From: an uncultured Bacilli bacterium
GTDB taxonomy: Bacteria; Bacillota_I; Bacilli_A; RF39; UBA660
Length of the DNA: 64,000 nt
Assembly: GCA_934179675.1 (NCBI GenBank)
Contig: CAKPQS010000001.1
Location: forward strand, 10,154 to 74,153
Direction of reading: 5' to 3'
How positions within the stretch are numbered: the stretch's first letter is position 1; every line of letters begins with the position of its first letter. The notes beneath the pieces are model-generated. The model was not told where the DNA came from, made no database searches, and saw only the letters and a list, made by a program, of their open reading frames with translations. The translations under genes and the position numbers were made by a program. Positions 37,227-63,108 of the stretch are shown here, one piece after another.

Positions 37227-37421
37227 CTAATAAGACTCTATTTTTTTTATTCTTTTATTAAAATCAATCCTTGGAAGCATTACTAAATGGCCACATTCTA
37301 AACACTTAATTTTTATGTCTGCGCCCATTCTAACAACTTCAAATTTGTTTCCACCACAAGGATGATTTTTTTTCATAATTACTATACTACCTAATTTATA
37401 TTCCTTCATATTATCACTCAT
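37227..37421 (-). CDS. DUF951 (YyzM-like) small zinc-ribbon protein
   Basis: 64 aa; LGSIVIMKKNHPCGGNKFEVVRMGADIKIKCLECGH matches the DUF951 family encoded downstream of spo0J in Bacillus. Confidence 0.6.
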   Translation of the reverse strand: MSDNMKEYKLGSIVIMKKNHPCGGNKFEVVRMGADIKIKCLECGHLVMLPRIDFNKRIKKIESY

Positions 37422-38292
37422 TGTATTTAATTATTTCTAATATTCTGTTTAAATCAGCTATATTATTAAACTTAATTTCTATTTTATTATCACGAATTTT
37501 AACTTTTGTATCAAATTTTTCCATTAAATTATTTTCAATATCACGAAGATTAGGATCAACTGATTCTACATGTTTATGATTTTTGACTTTTCTTTCAAAA
37601 CTATCATCTATCATTCTTTCCAAATCACGAACACTTAAATCATTGTCAACGATTTTATTTGCAAGTTCAGCAATTTTTTTATTATCTTCTAATTTACTTA
37701 ATACTCTAGCATGTCCCATAGATAATTTACCAAATTTTAATAATGATTGCACATCATCTGGTAATCTTAAAATACCTAAAATATTAGTGATATGGCTTCT
37801 GCTTTTTCCTACTTTAACTGATAATTCTTCTTGTGTTAATGATAATCTTTCAAGCATTAATTTATAAGCTTTTGCTTCTTCTATAATGTTCAAATTTTCT
37901 CTTTGTAAATTTTCAAGTAAAGCAATACTCATCATTTGATCATCAGTGAATGTTCTTATAATTGCTGGTATAGTTTTTAATCCAGCAATACGACTAGCAC
38001 GAACTCTTCTTTCGCCAGCTATAATTTCATATCCTTTTATACTTTTTTTAACAATAATAGGTTGAAATACACCATTTTCTTTAATTGATGAAGCTAAATC
38101 ATTTAAGGCTTCTTCATTAAAATTTATACGTGGTTGATAAGGATTTGGTCTCAACTCATCTAAATTTAACTCGACAATTTCTTCACTTGATGTTGATTCA
38201 TATATTTTTTTTTCAAATGAAGCAATATCTATATTATCGCCATTAAATAATTGTTCTAATCCCATTCCTAAAGCTTTTTTCTTAGTTTCCAT
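37414..38292 (-). CDS. parB: Chromosome partitioning protein ParB (Spo0J)
   Basis: LRPNPYQPR (ParB box I), IIAGERRVRAS (box II GERRxRA), an HTH and a C-terminal dimerisation region; 292 aa; directly downstream of parA. Confidence 0.8.
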   Translation of the reverse strand: METKKKALGMGLEQLFNGDNIDIASFEKKIYESTSSEEIVELNLDELRPNPYQPRINFNEEALNDLASSIKENGVFQPIIVKKSIKGYEIIAGERRVRASRIAGLKTIPAIIRTFTDDQMMSIALLENLQRENLNIIEEAKAYKLMLERLSLTQEELSVKVGKSRSHITNILGILRLPDDVQSLLKFGKLSMGHARVLSKLEDNKKIAELANKIVDNDLSVRDLERMIDDSFERKVKNHKHVESVDPNLRDIENNLMEKFDTKVKIRDNKIEIKFNNIADLNRILEIIKYNE

Positions 38293-39067
38293 TTTTACTA
38301 ATCACTTCCTTAGCTAAATTTATATAAGCTTCTGTGCCTCTACTTTGAAAATCGTAAGCTAATATTGGTTTGCCATGACTTGGTGCTTCAGATAATCTTA
38401 CAAGTCTAGGAATAATAGTTTCATAAACTTTTTCCTTAAAATAACTTTTTACTTCTTCTACAACTTCTAATCCCAAATTAGTTCTACTGTCCAACATAGT
38501 TAATAAGACACCTTCTATTTCCAATTTTGGATTTATATCTCTTTGAGCAAGTACAATTGTATTTAAAAGTTGCATTATTCCTTCAAGTGCAAAGAATTCA
38601 CATTGAACAGGAATAATTACTGAATCAGATGCCATTAGAGCATTTAATGTCAAAAGTTCCAATGAAGGTGGACAATCAATTATAATGTAATCAAAATTTT
38701 CTTTGGCTTGATCTAAATACTTCTTTAATTGAGCGTTTTTTACAAATGTTGGATCAAGTCTACTCTTTTCCATTAATTCAAAATTAACACCTGCTAAATT
38801 TATGTATGATGGTATTATATACAAATTTTGAAATTTTGTTTTTATAATAACATCTTTTAATTCACACTTATCTGTCAATAATTCATAAATACTATTTTCA
38901 AAGTTAGATTTATGAATTCCAAGTCCAGTAGAAGAATTACCTTGTGGATCTAAATCAACAAGTAATACTTTCTTTTTTAAATATCCTAATGAAGCAGCTA
39001 AATTAATACTAGTTGTTGTTTTTCCTACTCCACCTTTTTGATTAACTAATGCAATTATTTTTCCCAT
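38282..39067 (-). CDS. parA: Chromosome partitioning ATPase ParA (Soj)
   Basis: Deviant Walker A KGGVGKTT, DLDPQGN, and DCPPSLE (Walker B'); start at MGKIIAL with a GGTGA RBS. Confidence 0.85.
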   Translation of the reverse strand: MGKIIALVNQKGGVGKTTTSINLAASLGYLKKKVLLVDLDPQGNSSTGLGIHKSNFENSIYELLTDKCELKDVIIKTKFQNLYIIPSYINLAGVNFELMEKSRLDPTFVKNAQLKKYLDQAKENFDYIIIDCPPSLELLTLNALMASDSVIIPVQCEFFALEGIMQLLNTIVLAQRDINPKLEIEGVLLTMLDSRTNLGLEVVEEVKSYFKEKVYETIIPRLVRLSEAPSHGKPILAYDFQSRGTEAYINLAKEVISKNGN

Positions 39068-39251
39068 GTACATCACCATTTCTATTCATATATATATGAT
39101 ATCATATTTTTATTTTTTTTTCGATAGTTTTATTTAATATTTTTTTACTTTTATTTATAACTTACTTTACACAAAATTAAATTTATTTAATTAATAAAAT
39201 AATAATTATTTTATTATATTTAAAATAATAGTTATTTTAAATACATAAAAG

Positions 39252-45963: not shown

Positions 45964-46613
45964 TACCAACCCCACCTTAATACTGTAAATTTTGTATTAT
46001 TATTTGTTACATGTGCTGTTATAGATTCACCTGTAAAAGCTAAATCTATTAATACATTTCCATATAATCGCCATGCATTTCTCATAGCAATACCAGTATC
46101 CATACAAACTCCAATTATATCCATATTATCATTTACAACATGAATAATTGTTCCACATGGAAATAATGTTGGATCACTTGCTAAAATATGTATTTTACCA
46201 TATTCTTTATCATTAAAAAAAGTACTTTCAACATCATTAGTCAAATAGTGATAATTTCCATCACTATCTGGACAATATAATAAACCTGTACATCCATAAC
46301 AATCAGGACCATATCCAGTTAATTTTCCAGTATAATCTGCTTCTGGACCAGTTCCTATAACAACTTGTTCTGTTATACTTTCAAAAACTTGGACTTCACC
46401 AGTAGTTAAATTTGTAATAATTTTACCATTTTGACCAGCAACTAATACATTCTTATTATTTTTAGGTATCGAATCATCATATGTTTCAATTGTATCATAT
46501 TTAATTATTTCTGTTTTAATTATATCTCTTTTTGTATATTTATCAACACCATATATTAAAGTAATAGAAATTACTATATACATGATATCTAAAAGTCTCT
46601 TTTTCATAAGCAC
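45963..46613 (-). CDS. 3D-domain protein (YabE-like, RlpA-type double-psi beta-barrel), membrane-anchored
   Basis: N-terminal TM; the C-terminal region GTIIHVVNDNMDIIGVCMDTGIAMRNAW... has the conserved Asp pattern of the 3D domain. Position between tatD and rsmA matches B. subtilis yabE. Confidence 0.5.
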   Translation of the reverse strand: MLMKKRLLDIMYIVISITLIYGVDKYTKRDIIKTEIIKYDTIETYDDSIPKNNKNVLVAGQNGKIITNLTTGEVQVFESITEQVVIGTGPEADYTGKLTGYGPDCYGCTGLLYCPDSDGNYHYLTNDVESTFFNDKEYGKIHILASDPTLFPCGTIIHVVNDNMDIIGVCMDTGIAMRNAWRLYGNVLIDLAFTGESITAHVTNNNTKFTVLRWGW

Positions 46614-52496: not shown

Positions 52497-53308
52497 TTAT
52501 TATCACCTATTCCATGAAATTCTTTATAAACTTCATCTTTTTTTAAATTATATTTTTTAGCAATCATTTTTATTGCATCATTAGATTTCATACCATTATC
52601 GATTAATTCTTTTATTTCATCATTATAATTTTCATCTATTTCATCATTTATAGAACCACTAACAACTATAACAAATTGACCTTTTAAAACTATTTTATCA
52701 ATTAATTGACTTATATTTCCTCTATAAATTTCTTCATATTTTTTAGATATTTCCCGGGAAATAGAAATATATCTGTCGCCAAAAACATTTTTCATATCTT
52801 CAAGTACTTCAATCAAACGGTGTGGTGCTTCATAAAAAATTAATGTATGTTTTATTTTTTTTAAATTTTCTAATTCTTTAATTCTTTTAAATTGTTTAGC
52901 ATTTAAAAAACCATAAAAAGAAAAAGGAAGTGGTGCAATACCAGAAGCAATCAATGCCGGAAGTAAAGCATTTGCACCAGGAAGTGCTACTACATTAAAT
53001 CCTTTATTACTAGCTTCCCTAACAATAACATAACCAGGATCACTAATAATCGGGCATCCTTGGTCACTAACTATTCCAACATTTTGGCCATTTTCCAAAC
53101 ATTCTAAAACTTTATCAATGTTTTTTCTCTCATTTTGTTCATTATTTGAAATTAATTTTTTTGATATTTTATAATATGAAAGAAGTATACCAGTTTCTCT
53201 TGTATCTTCGCAAAACAACACATCAACTTTTTTTAATACATCGAGTGCTCTTATTGTAATATCATCCATATTTCCAATTGGAACAGGAATTAAATATAAT
53301 GTAGGCAT
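52493..53308 (-). CDS. rsmI: 16S rRNA (cytidine1402-2'-O)-methyltransferase RsmI (tetrapyrrole-methylase fold)
   Basis: LYLIPVPIGNMDDITIRAL..., VSDQGCPIISDPG and EAPHRL match RsmI/YabC. Confidence 0.85.
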   Translation of the reverse strand: MPTLYLIPVPIGNMDDITIRALDVLKKVDVLFCEDTRETGILLSYYKISKKLISNNEQNERKNIDKVLECLENGQNVGIVSDQGCPIISDPGYVIVREASNKGFNVVALPGANALLPALIASGIAPLPFSFYGFLNAKQFKRIKELENLKKIKHTLIFYEAPHRLIEVLEDMKNVFGDRYISISREISKKYEEIYRGNISQLIDKIVLKGQFVIVVSGSINDEIDENYNDEIKELIDNGMKSNDAIKMIAKKYNLKKDEVYKEFHGIGDNK

Positions 53309-56548: not shown

Positions 56549-56856
56549 TAAAATAAACCACTCATACCATTTGTATATTTACCCATTTTTTCTTCTGTCT
56601 TTTTATCAATTTTAGAAATAACATCATTAAAAGCAATTAGTAACATATCTTCAAGCATTTCTTTATCTTCCATAGCTTCATCTTTTATAGAAACACTTTC
56701 TATTTTTCTATTTCCATAAGCCTTAACTGTTACTAATTCTGAATTTCCTTCAAATAAAGTTTCATCAATAGCCTTTTTTTCTTTCATCATTTCACTTTGT
56801 AATTTTTGAGCTTGTCTAAGCATAGCTTGCATGTTCATATTGTTCCTCCTATTCAA
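56548..56856 (-). CDS. ybaB: Nucleoid-associated protein YbaB/EbfC
   Basis: 102 aa; N-terminus ...NMNMQAMLRQAQKLQSEM is characteristic; lies between dnaX and recR. Confidence 0.85.
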   Translation of the reverse strand: MNRRNNMNMQAMLRQAQKLQSEMMKEKKAIDETLFEGNSELVTVKAYGNRKIESVSIKDEAMEDKEMLEDMLLIAFNDVISKIDKKTEEKMGKYTNGMSGLF

Positions 56857-58543
56857 TCGTTATTAAACTTCCAAAGTCATCCTCAATTTGATTGGTAAAA
56901 TTATTTAATTCTTGATTATTTTCTTCTTTTTCCTCTATATAATTAAATACTCTTTTTTTATGATTGAAATCATCTCTAATTTTTTCCCATTCATCTATTG
57001 AAGTTGCAATAACTTTGTATTTCTTATTATATAACATTTCAAATAATAATTCAATCTTATCAATGTTTTCATTAAATAAATTAGCATCATGAATATTTGT
57101 ATAAACAAATATTAAATATTCCCCTCCAGCAGCCTTTAAAGTTCCATCAATAACTAAACTTGCAACAAAATTATAATTTACATCTAATATATAATTTCTG
57201 ACTTCTGGTAATTTTTCGCGAATTTCATTTAATAATACTCTATTATATTTTGCTAATGTATTTCCTATACGAATATTCTTTTTTGCTTCAAATTTTTTCA
57301 ATGCTTCTGTATCAATTCTGATTTCTATTTTTTTGGAAATATTATTAATATTTTTATGTTCTTCTTTTGTATTTTCTTTTATATTTTCAAGGCTAGAATT
57401 ATTTCCCAAATTATTTCCCGGGAAATAATTTATTTTATTTTCCGGTAATTTTTCCTGTGAGATTTGCGATATATCAGCAATATTTAGAGTAAGTAAATCA
57501 AATAAAACCTTTGGATTATTGCTCAATCTCATATCATATAATGAATCGTTCATCAATTTCATTATCTTATTAATTTGTTCTATGTTATATTCATCTGCAG
57601 TTTTTTTATAAAAATCAGCATATACATTTTCATTTAAATAATCTGGTACAATTTTAGCAATTAAAACATTTCTAAAAAAGGTAATAAGTTCTTCTAAAAC
57701 TTTTGTCATATTTTTACCGACATCATTATATGAATCAGATAACAATAATGCATCTTTTAAATCATTATTTTTTATCTTGCTAATAAAATCGTATAATTCT
57801 TCTGGTTTTAATGTTCCATTAACGTCATGTACATCTTTAAAAGTAATTTCTACTCCAGATCCAACATAAGCATTAACTTGGTCTAAAAGATTTATCGAAT
57901 CTCGCATGCCACCATCGGAAAGCAATGCAATTTCTTTTAAAATATCATCTGAAATGTTAATATTTTCATTTTGAGATATAATATGTAATCTTTTAACTAT
58001 ATCATCAACTGATATTTTTTTAAAATCGAATCTCTGGCATCTAGACAAAATAGTAATTGGTATTTTATAAGGTTCTGTCGTTGCTAAAACGAATATAACA
58101 TGTTTTGGCGGTTCTTCCAATGTTTTCAAAAGGGCATTAAAAGCACTTGTTGTTAACATATGAACTTCATCTATTATGTATATTTTATATTTTCCATAAG
58201 ATGGTACTAAATTTACTTTATCTCGCAATTCGCGTATTTCATCCACACCGTTATTAGAGGCAGCATCTATTTCTATTATATCAACACTTTGTTTATTGTT
58301 ATATTGCAAACAATTTTCGCATTGATTACATGGTAAGTAATCTTTTAAATTTGTACAATTAACTGTTTTTGCAAGTATTTTAGCAATACTAGTTTTTCCT
58401 GTACCTCTAGGACCGCAAAATAAGTATGCATGTGAAATTCTATCATATTTTATTGCATTTTTTAATGTTTTAACAATTACTTGTTGTCCAACAACTTCAT
58501 CAAAATTACTTGGTCTATATTTTCTATATAAAACTTGATACAT
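56849..58543 (-). CDS. dnaX: DNA polymerase III subunit tau/gamma
   Basis: YRKYRPSNFDEVVGQ, GPRGTGKTS, IIDEVHMLT, and a zinc module CTNLKDYLPCNQCENC. Confidence 0.9.
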   Translation of the reverse strand: MYQVLYRKYRPSNFDEVVGQQVIVKTLKNAIKYDRISHAYLFCGPRGTGKTSIAKILAKTVNCTNLKDYLPCNQCENCLQYNNKQSVDIIEIDAASNNGVDEIRELRDKVNLVPSYGKYKIYIIDEVHMLTTSAFNALLKTLEEPPKHVIFVLATTEPYKIPITILSRCQRFDFKKISVDDIVKRLHIISQNENINISDDILKEIALLSDGGMRDSINLLDQVNAYVGSGVEITFKDVHDVNGTLKPEELYDFISKIKNNDLKDALLLSDSYNDVGKNMTKVLEELITFFRNVLIAKIVPDYLNENVYADFYKKTADEYNIEQINKIMKLMNDSLYDMRLSNNPKVLFDLLTLNIADISQISQEKLPENKINYFPGNNLGNNSSLENIKENTKEEHKNINNISKKIEIRIDTEALKKFEAKKNIRIGNTLAKYNRVLLNEIREKLPEVRNYILDVNYNFVASLVIDGTLKAAGGEYLIFVYTNIHDANLFNENIDKIELLFEMLYNKKYKVIATSIDEWEKIRDDFNHKKRVFNYIEEKEENNQELNNFTNQIEDDFGSLITIE

Positions 58544-58591
58544 ATAACACCTCACTCATCACAATTATAGCACAAAAGAAAAAAGAAAAGA

Positions 58592-59029
58592 TTACTTTTT
58601 TCTTCTTTCTTCAAAAAAACTTTTAATTATTTTTAATGACTGTTCTTTTTCTAGTGTATTATCAATAATAATTCCATATTTTTTATTTTGGGAAATATTT
58701 TTTAAAGCACCAAATTCATTATTTTCTATGGAATAATATACCTTTTTTATTCTTGATTGAATAATAGCACCAGTACACATTAAACACGGTTCCATCGTCA
58801 CATATAATTCGCAATCATCTAATCTCCATCGTTTTAACTTTTTGGATGCCTTATTTATTGCTATGATTTCAGCATGTAATAATGGATTATGCTTTTTTTC
58901 TTTTAAATTATGTGCTTTTGCGATAATTTTGTTGTTTTTTACAATCACTGCACCGACAGGGACATCACCTTTTCTATAGCTTTTTTTAGCTTCATCCAAG
59001 GCAATCTTCATATAATTATTCATGCTCAC
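58592..59029 (-). CDS. tadA: tRNA-specific adenosine-34 deaminase TadA
   Basis: HAEIIAI (HAE) and PCLMCTGAI (PCxxC) zinc-deaminase motifs; 145 aa. Confidence 0.85.
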   Translation of the reverse strand: MSMNNYMKIALDEAKKSYRKGDVPVGAVIVKNNKIIAKAHNLKEKKHNPLLHAEIIAINKASKKLKRWRLDDCELYVTMEPCLMCTGAIIQSRIKKVYYSIENNEFGALKNISQNKKYGIIIDNTLEKEQSLKIIKSFFEERRKK

Positions 59030-59069
59030 CTCTATCCAAACATTTGTTCGCTTATGATGTTATTTTTAC

Positions 59070-59160
59070 AATAAAAAATAGTGCACACGTTTAGAGGTTT
59101 TTAAGGCTGCTATCTTCCAATTCTGACCTGTTTCAAACATAATCGTTGCACCAAATAAAA
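59070..59160 (-). ncRNA. ffs: small SRP RNA (4.5S/scRNA, ffs), tentative boundaries
   Basis: The minus-strand sequence ...GGUGCAACG...AACAGGUCAGAAUUGGAAGAUAGCAGCCUUAA...CGUGUGCAC+U6 contains the conserved domain IV (CAGGUCAG...GGAA tetraloop...AGCAGCC) of bacterial 4.5S RNA. A closing helix GUGCAACG/CGUGUGCAC and a U-tail are also present. Confidence 0.55.
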
Positions 59161-59251
59161 TATACAATATTTTAATTTTTTTTTCAAGGTTTTAATGTAT
59201 TTTTTAATCATTTTTATAATAAACATTTAAACAATAATAAATAGCTGTTTT

Positions 59252-59267
59252 ATGTTCCACGTGGAAC
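59252..59267. promoter_or_regulatory. parS-like site 1 (TGTTCCACGTGGAACA)
   Basis: Perfect 16-bp palindrome, extended to ATGTTCCACGTGGAACAT. Confidence 0.75.
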
Positions 59268-59441
59268 ATAAAAAAATATTTCTTAATATATTGTATTTAA
59301 TAATTAAAAAGACTTATTAACATTTGTGCTATTATGCATAATAAATTATATATAAAATACTATTTATTTAAATATTAAATTATATTGTACATTAAATAAA
59401 ACTAATTACATAATTTTAATTATTTAATTATTATTTATTAA

Positions 59442-59457
59442 TGTTCCACGTGGAACA
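59442..59457. promoter_or_regulatory. parS-like site 2
   Basis: Perfect palindrome, extended to the 24-bp TTAATGTTCCACGTGGAACATTAA. Confidence 0.75.
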
Positions 59458-59546
59458 TTAATAAACTTATTGACGTATCATATATTATGATCATTCTTAT
59501 CAGATATATATTATATATAAATAATAATTTTATATTTATGAAGCAA

Positions 59547-59562
59547 TGTTCCACGTGGAACA
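59547..59562. promoter_or_regulatory. parS-like site 3
   Basis: Perfect palindrome, extended to CAATGTTCCACGTGGAACATTG. Confidence 0.75.
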
Positions 59563-59705
59563 TTGTAGTTATTTTAGATAAAATAACATATCATCTGTAT
59601 TTGGCATAAATATATTTTATAAATATTCAATTATTGTTAGCAATAATATAAACACATTAAATTATAATATAAAAAATAAATTTAAATATCAAAATATATT
59701 TTAAT

Positions 59706-59721
59706 GTTTCACGTGGAACAT
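59706..59721. promoter_or_regulatory. parS-like site 4 (TGTTTCACGTGGAACA)
   Basis: Reverse orientation of the B. subtilis parS consensus; starts a 125-bp direct repeat unit. Confidence 0.75.
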
Positions 59722-59810
59722 TAACAAATCTAGATTTATGTAGTTTATCACTTATTTCCCAAAATAATTATTTTAAAATATAGAGTGAAATATTAACTTT
59801 TTTAGATCTA

Positions 59811-59826
59811 TGTTTCACGTGGAACA
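59811..59826. promoter_or_regulatory. parS-like site 5 (TGTTTCACGTGGAACA)
   Basis: Ends the first 125-bp direct repeat unit. Confidence 0.75.
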
Positions 59827-59965
59827 TCAATAAAACTACCAAACTATCATAAATTATTAATTAAATCGTTAAATTTATATTAAATTTCATACAAATTATT
59901 TAATTCAAAATTATAGTTTAGATAAGCAAGTATTTTTATCTTAAAATTTTTATTTATAAAACAAT

Positions 59966-59981
59966 GTTCCACGTGGAACAT
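59966..59981. promoter_or_regulatory. parS-like site 6
   Basis: Perfect palindrome, extended to the 24-bp ACAATGTTCCACGTGGAACATTGT. Confidence 0.75.
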
Positions 59982-60073
59982 TGTATCCAATTTATACAAA
60001 ACAAAATATAAATATTTAATTGTTATAAAAATATTATATTTATGCAAAATAATAATATTAAAAATAGACTAAA

Positions 60074-60125
60074 TAATATAATATAATATAATATAATATA
60101 ATATAATATAATATAATATAATATA
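60074..60125. repeat. (TAATA)n microsatellite, ~10 units
   Basis: aatataatataatataatataatataatataatataatataatata, between parS sites 6 and 7; absent from the equivalent position of the other repeat unit. Confidence 0.85.
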
Positions 60126-60131
60126 TGTTAA

Positions 60132-60147
60132 TGTTCCACGTGAAACA
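60132..60147. promoter_or_regulatory. parS-like site 7 (TGTTCCACGTGAAACA)
   Basis: Exact match to the canonical Firmicutes parS; starts the second 125-bp repeat unit. Confidence 0.75.
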
Positions 60148-60238
60148 TTAACAAATTTAGATTTAAGTAGTTTATCACTTATTTCCCAAAATAATTATTT
60201 TAAAATATAAAGTGAAATATTAACTTTTTTTAGATCTA

Positions 60239-60254
60239 TGTTCCACGTGGAACA
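60239..60254. promoter_or_regulatory. parS-like site 8
   Basis: Perfect palindrome; ends the second 125-bp repeat unit. Confidence 0.75.
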
Positions 60255-60375
60255 TAATAATTTATATATTAAAGAAAAATATTGTTTAAGTACAAAAACA
60301 ATATTTTTTATGTTGCAAATTATATACAATTAAAACTAATTGCATAATTATAATTATTTGGTCATTATTTATTGA

Positions 60376-60391
60376 TGTTCCACGTGGAACA
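60376..60391. promoter_or_regulatory. parS-like site 9
   Basis: Perfect palindrome; its flank (aaactaattgcataatt...tatttattgATGTTCC) resembles the site 2 flank. Confidence 0.75.
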
Positions 60392-60552
60392 TTGTTTTTA
60401 ATATATGCATTTATTATATTATAAATACTTCCACAAAATATTAACCTAAAATATTTTTACATATATTTTCACGAAGAGTTATTAACAAACATTAATGTAG
60501 ACATATTTAAGAAAAAATTATAAATAAAGTTATTAACAAAACTTTCTAATTT

Positions 60553-60585
60553 TAAACAAAAAGAAGAAGTTTAAACTTCTTCCTC
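60553..60585 (-). terminator. rho-independent terminator of gyrA (overlaps the last codons)
   Basis: GAAGAAGTTtaaAACTTCTTC hairpin followed by TTTTTGTTT on the minus strand. Confidence 0.5.
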
Positions 60586-63108
60586 TATATCACTTGTAAC
60601 TATTTCAGCAGAACCAACCTTTTGATCATCACGTAAATTAATTAACTTAACGCCTTGAGCTACACGACCAGTTTGAGAAACCTGATTCAAAGGTAATCTA
60701 ATAATTGTTCCACTACTTGTAATAATCATTAAATCACAATTATCTTTAATCGCCTTAAAAGATACAATTGAACCATTTTTTTCCGTAATATTAAGTGCTT
60801 TTACACCTTTACTACCCCTATGAGTCAAACGATATTCAGAAACTGCTGTTTTTTTACCATAACCATTTTCAGTAACAACTAAAACTAATTCATCAGGTTC
60901 AAAAACTTCCATTCCAATACATTTAGAATTATCGACATTTACACCTTTAACACCAGAAGCAGTACGTCCCATAACACGAATTTCATTTTCATTAAACCTA
61001 ATCATACGTCCATCTGAAGTAGCAAGTATTACCTCATTTGAACCATTTGTTTTTTTAACCGCGATTAATTCATCATTTTCTCTTAAGCTAATTGCAATTT
61101 TACCACTAGTTCTGATATTTTCGAATTCATTTAGTGAAGTTCTCTTAACAATACCAGTTTGTGTACAGAATACAAGATATTTTTTTTGTTCATCGTTTGA
61201 AACAGCGGTCATAACTTTAACATATTCATCTTTAGCAAGTGGTAATAAATTAATAATAGGTAATCCTTTAGATTGACGACTATATAAAGGTACTTCATAT
61301 CCTTTCATACGATATACACGACCTTTATTTGTAAAGAACATAACATAATCATGTGTTGTCATATTTAAAATATGTTTAGCAAAATCCTCTTCGTTTGTAG
61401 TCATTCCTTTAATACCAACACCACCACGATTTTGAATCTTATAAGTATCAGAATTAACACGTTTTATATATCCTTTATTTGTAAACGTAATGATAATATC
61501 TTCGACAGGAATTAATGATTCATCCTCTATATAATCAATTGCACTCATATCAATATGTGTTCTTCTCTCATCTGCATATTTATCTTTAATTTCAAGCATT
61601 TCAGATTTAATAATATCTAAAACTTTTTGATCTGAAGCAAGTATTTCTTTATATTGTTCAATAAGTTTTAATAAATCATTCAATTCATCAATAACCTTAT
61701 CAATTTCCATACCAGTTAATCTTCTTAACTTCATTTCCAAAATTGCATTAGATTGTATATCATCTAAACCAAAATCCTTATTTAATCTTTCTTTAGCAAT
61801 TATATCAGTTTTAGAACCTCTAATTATTTTGATAACAGCATCAATATTGTCTAAAGCAATTTTTAACCCCTCTAAAATATGTACTCTTTCTTCTGCTTTT
61901 TTCAGATCATATCTAGTTCTTCTAATAATTACTTCTTTCTGAAAATCAATATATTTAGAAATAATATCTTTCAATCCTAATGTTCTTGGCGTTAAACCAT
62001 CTAACATTAATAATGTTATACCATAAGTAATTTGAAAATCTGTATGTTTGTATAAATTATTTAAAACAACTTGAGGATTTGCTTCTTTTTTTAAAGTAAT
62101 TATTATCTTAACCCCATCTTTTAAATCAATATGGTAATCAGCAATGCCCTCAATAGTCTTATTATGAACAAGTTCAGCAAGTTTTGTCTTAAGATCAAGT
62201 GTATTAACACCATAAGGAACTTCTGTAACAATAATTTCATTATGACCATCAATTTCTTCAATTGAAGCTTTACTTCTTATTGTAATAGTTCCTTTACCAG
62301 TATCGTATGCTTTTTTTATACCAGAATTTCCTAATATAACAGCACCAGTAGGAAAATCTGGTCCTTTAATATACTGCATAAGACCTAATGTATCAATGTC
62401 AGGATTATCAATATATGCAATACAGCCATCAATAACTTCACCTAAATTATGTGGTGGAATATTAGTAGCCATACCAACTGCAATACCCATAGTTCCATTT
62501 ACCAAAATATTTGGAAATCTAGAAGGTAAAACTTGTGGTTCTTTCCATTCTTCATCAAAATTAGGAACCATATTCACAGTATCTTTATTAATATCTCTTA
62601 AAAGTTCAAGAGAAATTTTAGAAAGACGAGCTTCTGTATAACGCATTGCTGCCGCTCCATCGCCATCAATATTACCAAAATTGCCATGACCATCTACTAA
62701 TGGAGCTCTATAAGAAAAATCTTGAGCCATTCTTACCATTGCTTCATAAATTGATGAATCACCATGTGGATGATAATGTCCCATTACATAACCAACTGTA
62801 GTAGCTGATTTTCTATGTGGTTTATCAGGAGTATAACCACATTCTAACATTGACCACAAAATTCTTCTATGAACAGGTTTTAATCCATCTCTTAAATCTG
62901 GTAAGGCACGTGACGCAATTACACTCATTGAATAATCAAGAAAAGATTTTTCTATTTCAGAAACAATGTTATTTTCTGATAAACTATCTCTTTCATGAAA
63001 AGTACCACCATAAATATTATCAGAATTATCTAATGTGTCAAAATTTGCTAAAGAATTATTATCATTTTTTTTAATATTTTCTTCATTTTTAATAACTTCA
63101 TTATCCAT
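60571..63108 (-). CDS. gyrA: DNA gyrase subunit A
   Basis: 845 aa; AMRYTEARL (active-site Tyr), the QRDR region, GyrA-box-containing C-terminal beta-pinwheel repeats, and an acidic tail. Confidence 0.95.

Follow-up and report, generated by a model that had tools for sequence, protein, structure and literature searches.

The gyrA–ffs spacer and its parS sites

The 64 kb stretch of DNA analysed here (the window) belongs to an uncultured bacterium of 25 % GC known from human gut metagenomes, Hadza samples among them, and carries, in the non-coding spacer between gyrA and ffs, the gene for the small signal recognition particle (SRP) RNA, a dense array of nine palindromes of the type bound by the partition protein ParB (parS sites). 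All on the minus strand, gyrA occupies 60571–63108, ffs 59065–59162 (Rfam RF00169, 55 bits) and tadA, which encodes a tRNA adenosine deaminase, 58592–59029. Pfam recognizes gyrA, tadA and the 3′ end of gyrB, which also falls within the window, and together with Rfam it agrees with the flanking genes, gyrA on one side and ffs/tadA on the other, that an initial annotation of this DNA had named. Zero genes were called in the gyrA–ffs spacer in contigs of the same species.

We searched the window for TGTTCCACGTGGAACA with up to two mismatches, taking 100 dinucleotide-preserving shuffles as background, and found nine TGTTYCACGTGRAACA sites at 59253–60391, a span of 1139 bp, versus no match in any of the 100 shuffled sequences. 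All nine agree with the 16-bp palindromic consensus TGTTNCACGTGNAACA; six are perfect palindromes and the remaining three change only at the degenerate position 5/12 (TGTTTCAC or GTGAAACA). Counting from ffs, site 1 (59253–59268; TGTTCCACGTGGAACA, perfect) is nearest to that gene, about 66 nt upstream of its −35-like hexamer; sites 2 (59442–59457) and 3 (59547–59562) are perfect and have flanks 89 % and 82 % identical to those of sites 9 and 6, respectively; site 4 (59705–59720) reads TGTTTCACGTGGAACA, a variant at degenerate position 5, as does site 5 (59811–59826); site 6 (59965–59980) is perfect; site 7 (60132–60147) reads TGTTCCACGTGAAACA; and sites 8 (60239–60254) and 9 (60376–60391) are again perfect. 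Both the number of sites claimed in the initial annotation and their spacing, given there as 105–190 bp, are thus recovered, the start-to-start distances being 189, 105, 158, 106, 154, 167, 107 and 137 bp. This spacing is irregular: there is no fixed head-to-tail unit, and Tandem Repeats Finder (TRF) reports no array-wide period. Outside the array the window contains no parS site at up to two mismatches, and allowing three adds one weak match, at 46149. Likewise, no site at up to two mismatches occurs in about 17 kb to the left of the replication origin (oriC), a region of the same species that was reached via MnmE (99 % identical). Within the roughly 85 kb around oriC read for this species, all sites of this quality lie in the array.

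Two features on the minus strand bound the array. Upstream is the intrinsic terminator of gyrA (60553–60586), a hairpin whose 12-bp stem closes a loop containing the stop codon and precedes a U tract; downstream, directly in front of ffs, is a promoter-like TTGAAA-17-TATATT (59159–59187), recognized by consensus match only. Since gyrA has this strong terminator of its own upstream of the array, the array is probably not transcribed, and we regard it as a probably silent spacer reaching from the terminator to the promoter-like site. Searched at gathering thresholds, Rfam returned ffs alone as a structured RNA in the window, and a structured-RNA reading of the array was rejected on this ground.

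In contig L006 of the same species, whose GyrA is identical to that of the window, the gene order is rpmH, dnaA–dnaN–comK–recF–gyrB–gyrA–(array)–tadA–dnaX–ybaB–recR–bofA, and the array starts about 9–10 kb to the right of dnaA/oriC. DnaA-box variants (TTATCAACA) are clustered upstream of dnaA and between dnaA and dnaN, and the array has no TTATCCACA-like DnaA box at up to one mismatch. Since the boxes surround dnaA and none falls in the array, the latter lies some 9 kb to the right of oriC and outside it, which rules out that it is part of oriC. The GC skew is negative throughout the window, and the whole window therefore belongs to a single replichore.

The presumed binder of the array is encoded about 21 kb away by a parA–parB operon, located much as the initial annotation had it: parB at 37414–38292 and parA, for a Soj-type ATPase recognized by Pfam and profile search, at 38282–39079, both on the minus strand. 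Pfam, TIGR00180 and structure matches all identify ParB as a chromosomal Spo0J-type protein. It has the domains ParB_N, HTH_ParB and ParB_C, scores 200 bits against TIGR00180 (cut-off 58) and falls below the cut-off of the Noc model; its best solved relative is Bacillus subtilis Spo0J (6SDK, 207 bits), with Noc structures at 144–148 bits. The cytidine triphosphate (CTP) motif is GERRVRA (GERRxRA type), and the DNA-binding domain reads LTQ...GKSRSHITN...(22 residues)...GHAR. This motif spacing (GKSR-x4-N-x22-G-H-A-R) equals that of Caulobacter Q162, G170, K171, S172, R173, N178, G201 and R204, the Caulobacter numbering having been mapped by motif spacing and not by a computed alignment. On the same mapping, R173 and G201 are both present in the window ParB; these residues are invariant in ParB orthologues and separate parS binders from Noc proteins, which bind the Noc-binding site (NBS) (PMC7383237). 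The window has no ParB-family gene other than parB. Downstream of parB lie DUF951, ychF and rpsF–ssb–rpsR, a context that presumably resembles the gene order downstream of parB in B. subtilis.

Turnover of the array in strains and relatives

Comparison of strains and of repeats within the array points to a structure in flux around constant sites. Strain L006 contains one 140-nt unit more than the window, and with it a tenth parS site on the gyrA side of site 9, and its site 7 has decayed to TATTCCATGTGGAACA; the other three between-strain changes within parS sites merely toggle degenerate position 5/12. In the window itself a block of about 420 nt with three parS sites is duplicated inside the array. 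The duplication is most evident in the copies 59645–59803 and 60072–60230 (both given on the plus strand), which are 84 % identical at an offset of 427 nt, and further flanks pair too; each of these two copies contains one parS site (site 4 or site 7), a half-NBS ATTTCCC (at 59754 or 60181) and the spacer to site 5 or site 8. The identity of the copies indicates that the array has grown by segmental duplication and, considering also the unit indel between strains, we conclude that whole units are gained and lost as the array evolves and that the site itself stays constant. One spacer includes an (ATAAT)x10.6 microsatellite (60073–60125, plus strand) that varies in length between strains: compared with the window, L006 lacks 40 nt of it (eight repeat units) and L007 lacks 5 nt.

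The initial annotation had further suggested that several sites extend to perfect palindromes of 22–24 bp and that the extension might be an additional binding determinant. One position of it on either side holds up. An A at −1 and a T at +17 occur in all 18 half-sites of the window and, across 22 related species, in 98 % of 230, whereas A has a background frequency of 40–44 %; for other phyla the figure is 49 %. The outer positions do not hold up: at −3, C is enriched and G absent, −2 and −3 reflect compositional bias only, and flanks beyond −3 are the same as background. We therefore reject the 22–24-bp palindrome as a binding determinant, only −1/+17 being invariant, and the palindromes of 22 to 32 bp seen at some sites are largely a product of AT-rich flanks. 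Judged by conservation, this clade has an effective site of 18 bp with a clade-specific, near-invariant A/T at −1/+17, and it is only this 18-mer, ATGTTYCACGTGRAACAT, that selection maintains within the array.

Eighty metagenomic loci of relatives, an unbiased sample fetched by GyrA (68–89 % identity) and up to 14 kb long, were compared, 42 of which are informative in that they contain at least 2.5 kb downstream of gyrA. The array proved to be kept: in 36 of these 42 the gyrA–tadA spacer has 2–10 parS sites directly after gyrA, and in none of the 80 loci does a parS site occur elsewhere. Outside the 42-locus subset, L142, with about 2.0 kb downstream of gyrA, has 13 sites split around tadA. 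Across relatives the copy number thus runs from 0 to 13, with a median of 3–5 and single-site loci rare, and the array of the window (nine sites, 1.14 kb) stands near the top of this range. Spacing is equally diverse, reaching about 200 bp at its widest; often it is an exact tandem period, of 26 bp at the narrowest (L158), 36 bp (L129, the closest relative, with 89 % GyrA identity), 38 bp (L206), and also 42, 105 and 119 bp. Between species the spacers are unalignable beyond low-identity AT-rich matches. In 32 of the 80 loci the contig breaks off no more than 1.5 kb past gyrA, and in 26 of these parS sites are already visible, a pattern consistent with breaks at repeats and with the array being a recurrent assembly breakpoint in the metagenome-assembled genomes of the lineage.

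We also considered whether the sites are helically phased. In the window a post hoc Rayleigh test gives R=0.68 (p about 0.02) for clustering of the spacings around multiples of 10.5 bp, but in the relatives 231–280 spacings give R of about 0.1 with a preferred phase that is not zero, and the exact tandem periods include 26, 36, 38 and 55 bp; helical phasing was rejected.

Wider occurrence was surveyed in reference genomes, one per species, by looking for two parS sites 96–126 bp apart in stretches of at most 8 kb. This returned at least 120 loci, and the counts that follow are lower bounds among the 120 loci listed, this species' own reference genome not being one of them, and do not measure prevalence. 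At least 35 loci pack a minimum of five sites into 1.5 kb, dense examples being Moranbacteria and Moraniibacteriota (10–11 sites), Paceibacterota (8), Bdellovibrionales (8), Bacteroidetes (7) and several Clostridia; parA or parB is found within the same stretch in at least 54; and at least 22 loci, each a species, form a low-GC Bacilli group with the gyrA–tadA context. The related reference genomes are labelled uncultured Bacilli, Mycoplasmatota, Tenericutes and Candidatus Onthocola, and tandem periods in the reference genomes include 55 (L080), 63 and about 125 bp.

A probable chromosomal centromere and its alternatives

Considering that the sites match the parS consensus, that a parS-type ParB is encoded, that about 9 kb separate the array from dnaA and that in relatives the sites are conserved and the spacers are not, we propose that the array is very probably a chromosomal centromere, that is, a ParB-loading parS cluster, and that it evolves by duplication and loss of units. 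ParB–CTP is described as loading at parS, closing and then sliding (PMC7053999, PMC8367383), and in vitro a higher number of parS copies gives a higher rate of ParB clamp loading and a more stable condensation (PMC8299390). Each site of the array would accordingly load CTP-bound ParB dimers, the clamps of which would close and slide onto flanking DNA, and nine loaders in 1.1 kb would raise the loading flux that feeds one partition complex. Such a complex would probably reach oriC and, with typical spreading, cover gyrBA, dnaA/oriC and ffs–tadA–dnaX. It would be moved by ParA and might load SMC, if the organism has SMC; effects on the expression of ffs are also conceivable.

Several points weigh against this proposal. 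We infer ParB occupancy, spreading and SMC loading at the array from the established ParB mechanism; no smc gene was seen in the window; and further parS sites may exist elsewhere in the genome. In addition, a single parS site is enough in several model species (PMC7022226, PMC8299390), and the range of 0–13 copies in relatives, together with the strain differences, may mean that multiplicity is weakly selected or neutral.

This last point leads to the most serious alternative, which we consider doubtful, although clearly the best of the three discussed here: the sites bind ParB, but their ninefold number is without function and has arisen by neutral slippage or unequal recombination in AT-rich repeats, one or two sites being enough. 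It would account for a copy number and a period (26 to about 200 bp) that vary so widely in relatives, for the differences seen between strains (one unit gained or lost, a site that has decayed, a microsatellite of another length), for the lack of conserved helical phasing and for the sufficiency of one site in model species (PMC7022226, PMC8299390). However, two or more sites are kept in 36 of the 42 informative relatives, with the median and the rarity of single-site loci noted above; the sites stay at consensus while the spacers diverge, which implies purifying selection on many copies together; and loading and condensation scale with copy number in vitro (PMC8299390).

An unlikely alternative is that the palindromes are mainly transcriptional, either as insulator or terminator hairpins or as an array of operators by which ParB or some other factor regulates ffs–tadA–dnaX. 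Five of the sites do score as terminator-like hairpins (0.2 expected), about 66 nt separate the nearest site from the promoter-like hexamers of ffs downstream of it, and ParB of Pseudomonas aeruginosa represses neighbouring genes when bound at an intergenic parS (PMC7022226). Yet a terminator-like score is trivial for a GC-containing palindrome in AT-rich DNA, and an RNA hairpin would tolerate compensatory changes, whereas the 16-mer does not vary and is identical to the universal parS; moreover, with the strong terminator of gyrA upstream, the array is probably untranscribed. That the likeness to parS is coincidental, the sites belonging to some other CACGTG-recognizing regulator or to a mobile repeat resembling a miniature inverted-repeat transposable element (MITE), is very improbable. 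The initial annotation had itself raised such a regulator, and nothing in favour of this reading was found. Against it stand the facts that the match extends beyond the CACGTG core to all 16 positions, that the flanks are unconserved, unlike those of a mobile element, that the sites are confined to one spacer in 80 relatives and occur nowhere else in 64 kb, that a parS-type ParB is encoded, and that the array has neither an Rfam family, ffs apart, nor more than one short weak plasmid match.

If the array is indeed the centromere of its chromosome, how unusual is it? The initial annotation regarded so tight a cluster as atypical for chromosomes, and this did not stand. The parS sites of a bacterial genome are usually single or few and lie close together, most of them clustered within 5–40 kb, the scattered arrangement of B. 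subtilis being the exception, so that clustering is the norm (PMC8357415); the cluster of Myxococcus xanthus is similarly dense, and many lineages in our survey have at least five sites in 1.5 kb. Dense parS arrays are an already known, recurrent architecture, and it is by its locus and its lineage that the present array stands out. In M. xanthus a 3-kb cluster of 22 parS sites (24 by another count) lies upstream of parAB and is bound by ParB in vitro (PMC3899335, PMC3778016). Like the present array, it consists of dense, origin-proximal consensus sites (TGTTCCACGTGGAAC[G/A]), about one every 130–140 bp, that serve a chromosomal ParABS system. Unlike it, the Myxococcus cluster has two to three times more sites and lies about 4 kb upstream of parA and some 30 kb from the origin; the present array, in a Bacilli genome of 25 % GC, is 21 kb from parAB, in the gyrA–tadA spacer and about 9 kb from oriC. 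It therefore shares the dense spacing (up to about 200 bp) of a Myxococcus-type cluster but not the location immediately upstream of parAB. With B. subtilis it shares the site consensus and a ParB closest to Spo0J; however, the 8–10 parS sites of B. subtilis are scattered over about 0.75 Mb, mostly in genes, whereas here every detected site falls in one non-coding spacer of 1.1 kb. The P. aeruginosa parS1–4 cluster and typical clusters likewise comprise multiple origin-proximal sites thought to build one partition complex (PMC8357415, PMC7022226), and the density of the present array, nine sites in 1.1 kb versus a few over several kilobases, is one to two orders of magnitude higher.

The initial annotation had also likened the array to a plasmid or phage partition centromere, and this is an analogy only. 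The sopC centromere of the F plasmid consists of 12 tandem 43-bp repeats. As in sopC, many palindromes for a ParB-family protein are packed into a short non-coding stretch, and the exact units of 26–125 bp in relatives are sopC-like in form; unlike sopC, the array is chromosomal, stands among housekeeping genes and away from parAB, uses the universal chromosomal parS and is irregularly spaced. As a statement of origin the comparison fails: the context is dnaA–dnaN–recF–gyrB–gyrA and tadA–dnaX–recR, and 72,556 known plasmids yielded a single weak match, of 78 nt, so that plasmid or phage derivation was rejected. Separately, 43 contigs in IMG/VR (L212–L254) have two host-type parS sites 96–126 bp apart; they may be phage–plasmids, or prophages with host flanks.

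The significance of very probably having identified the centromere of an uncultured gut Bacilli lineage is modest. The array is a lineage-wide feature at a fixed locus, the gyrA–tadA spacer, and not beside parAB. Why parS number and spacing vary is an open question in reviews (PMC7333895), and the arrays described here, with 0–13 sites at periods between 26 and about 200 bp, form a natural series on which it could be addressed.

Noc-binding sites, a Noc-like paralogue and other features of the region

The lead most worth following is, in our opinion, the interleaving of parS with Noc-binding sites in relatives, together with an atypical Noc-like protein. The consensus NBS is the palindrome ATTTCCCGGGAAAT (PMC7383237). 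Inside the parS arrays of relatives we counted 88 NBS in 76 kb, versus 55 in 878 kb outside them, an enrichment of about 18-fold. In L024, L071, L133, L193, L199, L201 and L203 parS and NBS alternate strictly within the same tandem unit, and in L168 they do so save for one additional terminal NBS; composite units (e.g. L024 2264–2962 and L199 8518–9009) have periods of about 114–125 bp in the regular tandem arrays. Moreover, of the six informative relatives whose spacer is devoid of parS, four have NBS in it. The NBS of B. subtilis are described as dispersed over the chromosome, and a literature search found no description of NBS interleaved with parS.

The array of the window contains no NBS palindrome (TATTTCCCGGGAAATA) at up to two mismatches. 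A half-NBS, ATTTCCC within TTATTTCCCAAAATAA, is present at 59754–59760 and 60181–60187, once in each copy of the duplicated block, and both lie in mid-spacer between two parS sites, where relatives have an intact NBS; they look like relics of a decayed composite unit. Elsewhere in the window, where about 0.15 NBS would be expected even with two mismatches, two perfect copies of ATTTCCCGGGAAAT occur within genes, at 52749–52762 in an rsmI-like methylase gene and at 57413–57426 in dnaX, the latter being found also in strains L006 (15772) and L007 (11863).

A candidate for a second binder is encoded to the left of oriC, where the same species has a 473-aa ParB paralogue directly after rsmG, the canonical location of noc (L209 5080–6501), with orthologues at L210 14098–15606 and L211 5918–7426 (family length 473–502 aa). 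Its best match in the PDB is to Noc structures (214 bits, versus 119–163 bits for ParB/Spo0J structures), and it has the Noc-type specificity residues Q173, K179, K184 and R201 (QKKR). In two respects it is atypical: it starts about 22 residues later than Geobacillus Noc and thus lacks the membrane-targeting helix, which is required for Noc function (PMC8429893), and it has an acidic low-complexity insert of about 230 residues ahead of the C-terminal domain. The short interval that separates rsmG from the noc-like gene contains a perfect NBS (L209 4959–4972, L210 13916, L211 5736), with a second half-NBS in L209 beside a masked run of N; this placement hints that the protein may regulate, or be loaded at, the gene that encodes it. 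The soj–spo0J pair has been separated from noc, with parA–parB about 30 kb to the right of oriC, after tilS–ftsH–gmk, and the noc-like gene staying to the left of oriC beside rsmG (L209/L210).

On this basis we put forward, tentatively and as a possibility that we would not ourselves favour at present, that the gyrA–tadA spacer of this lineage serves both CTP clamps of the ParB family as a dedicated landing region that evolves rapidly. If this were true, co-loading of ParB and the Noc-like protein from a composite array beside oriC would be an undescribed coupling of centromere and Noc function.

The genes further downstream of the spacer follow the order seen in L006. The tadA open reading frame (ORF) comprises 145 aa, the start chosen by gene callers probably being the later one (143 aa); dnaX, after tadA, was placed at 56849–58555 by tblastn matches, and the ORFs beyond it were named ybaB and recR by correspondence with genes called in that contig. 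In the origin cluster a gene of the ComK family (PF06338, 149–151 aa) is situated between dnaN and recF (L006 6370–6825; also in L007, L008 and L210). Finally, between the gyrA terminator and the first parS site on that side, the direct repeat GTTATTAACAAA occurs twice, at 60478–60489 and 60529–60540, 51 nt apart, and the pair is identical in three strains. The repeat includes TTATTAACA, one mismatch off the DnaA-box variant TTATCAACA of the species, a likeness that may be due to chance in AT-rich DNA.

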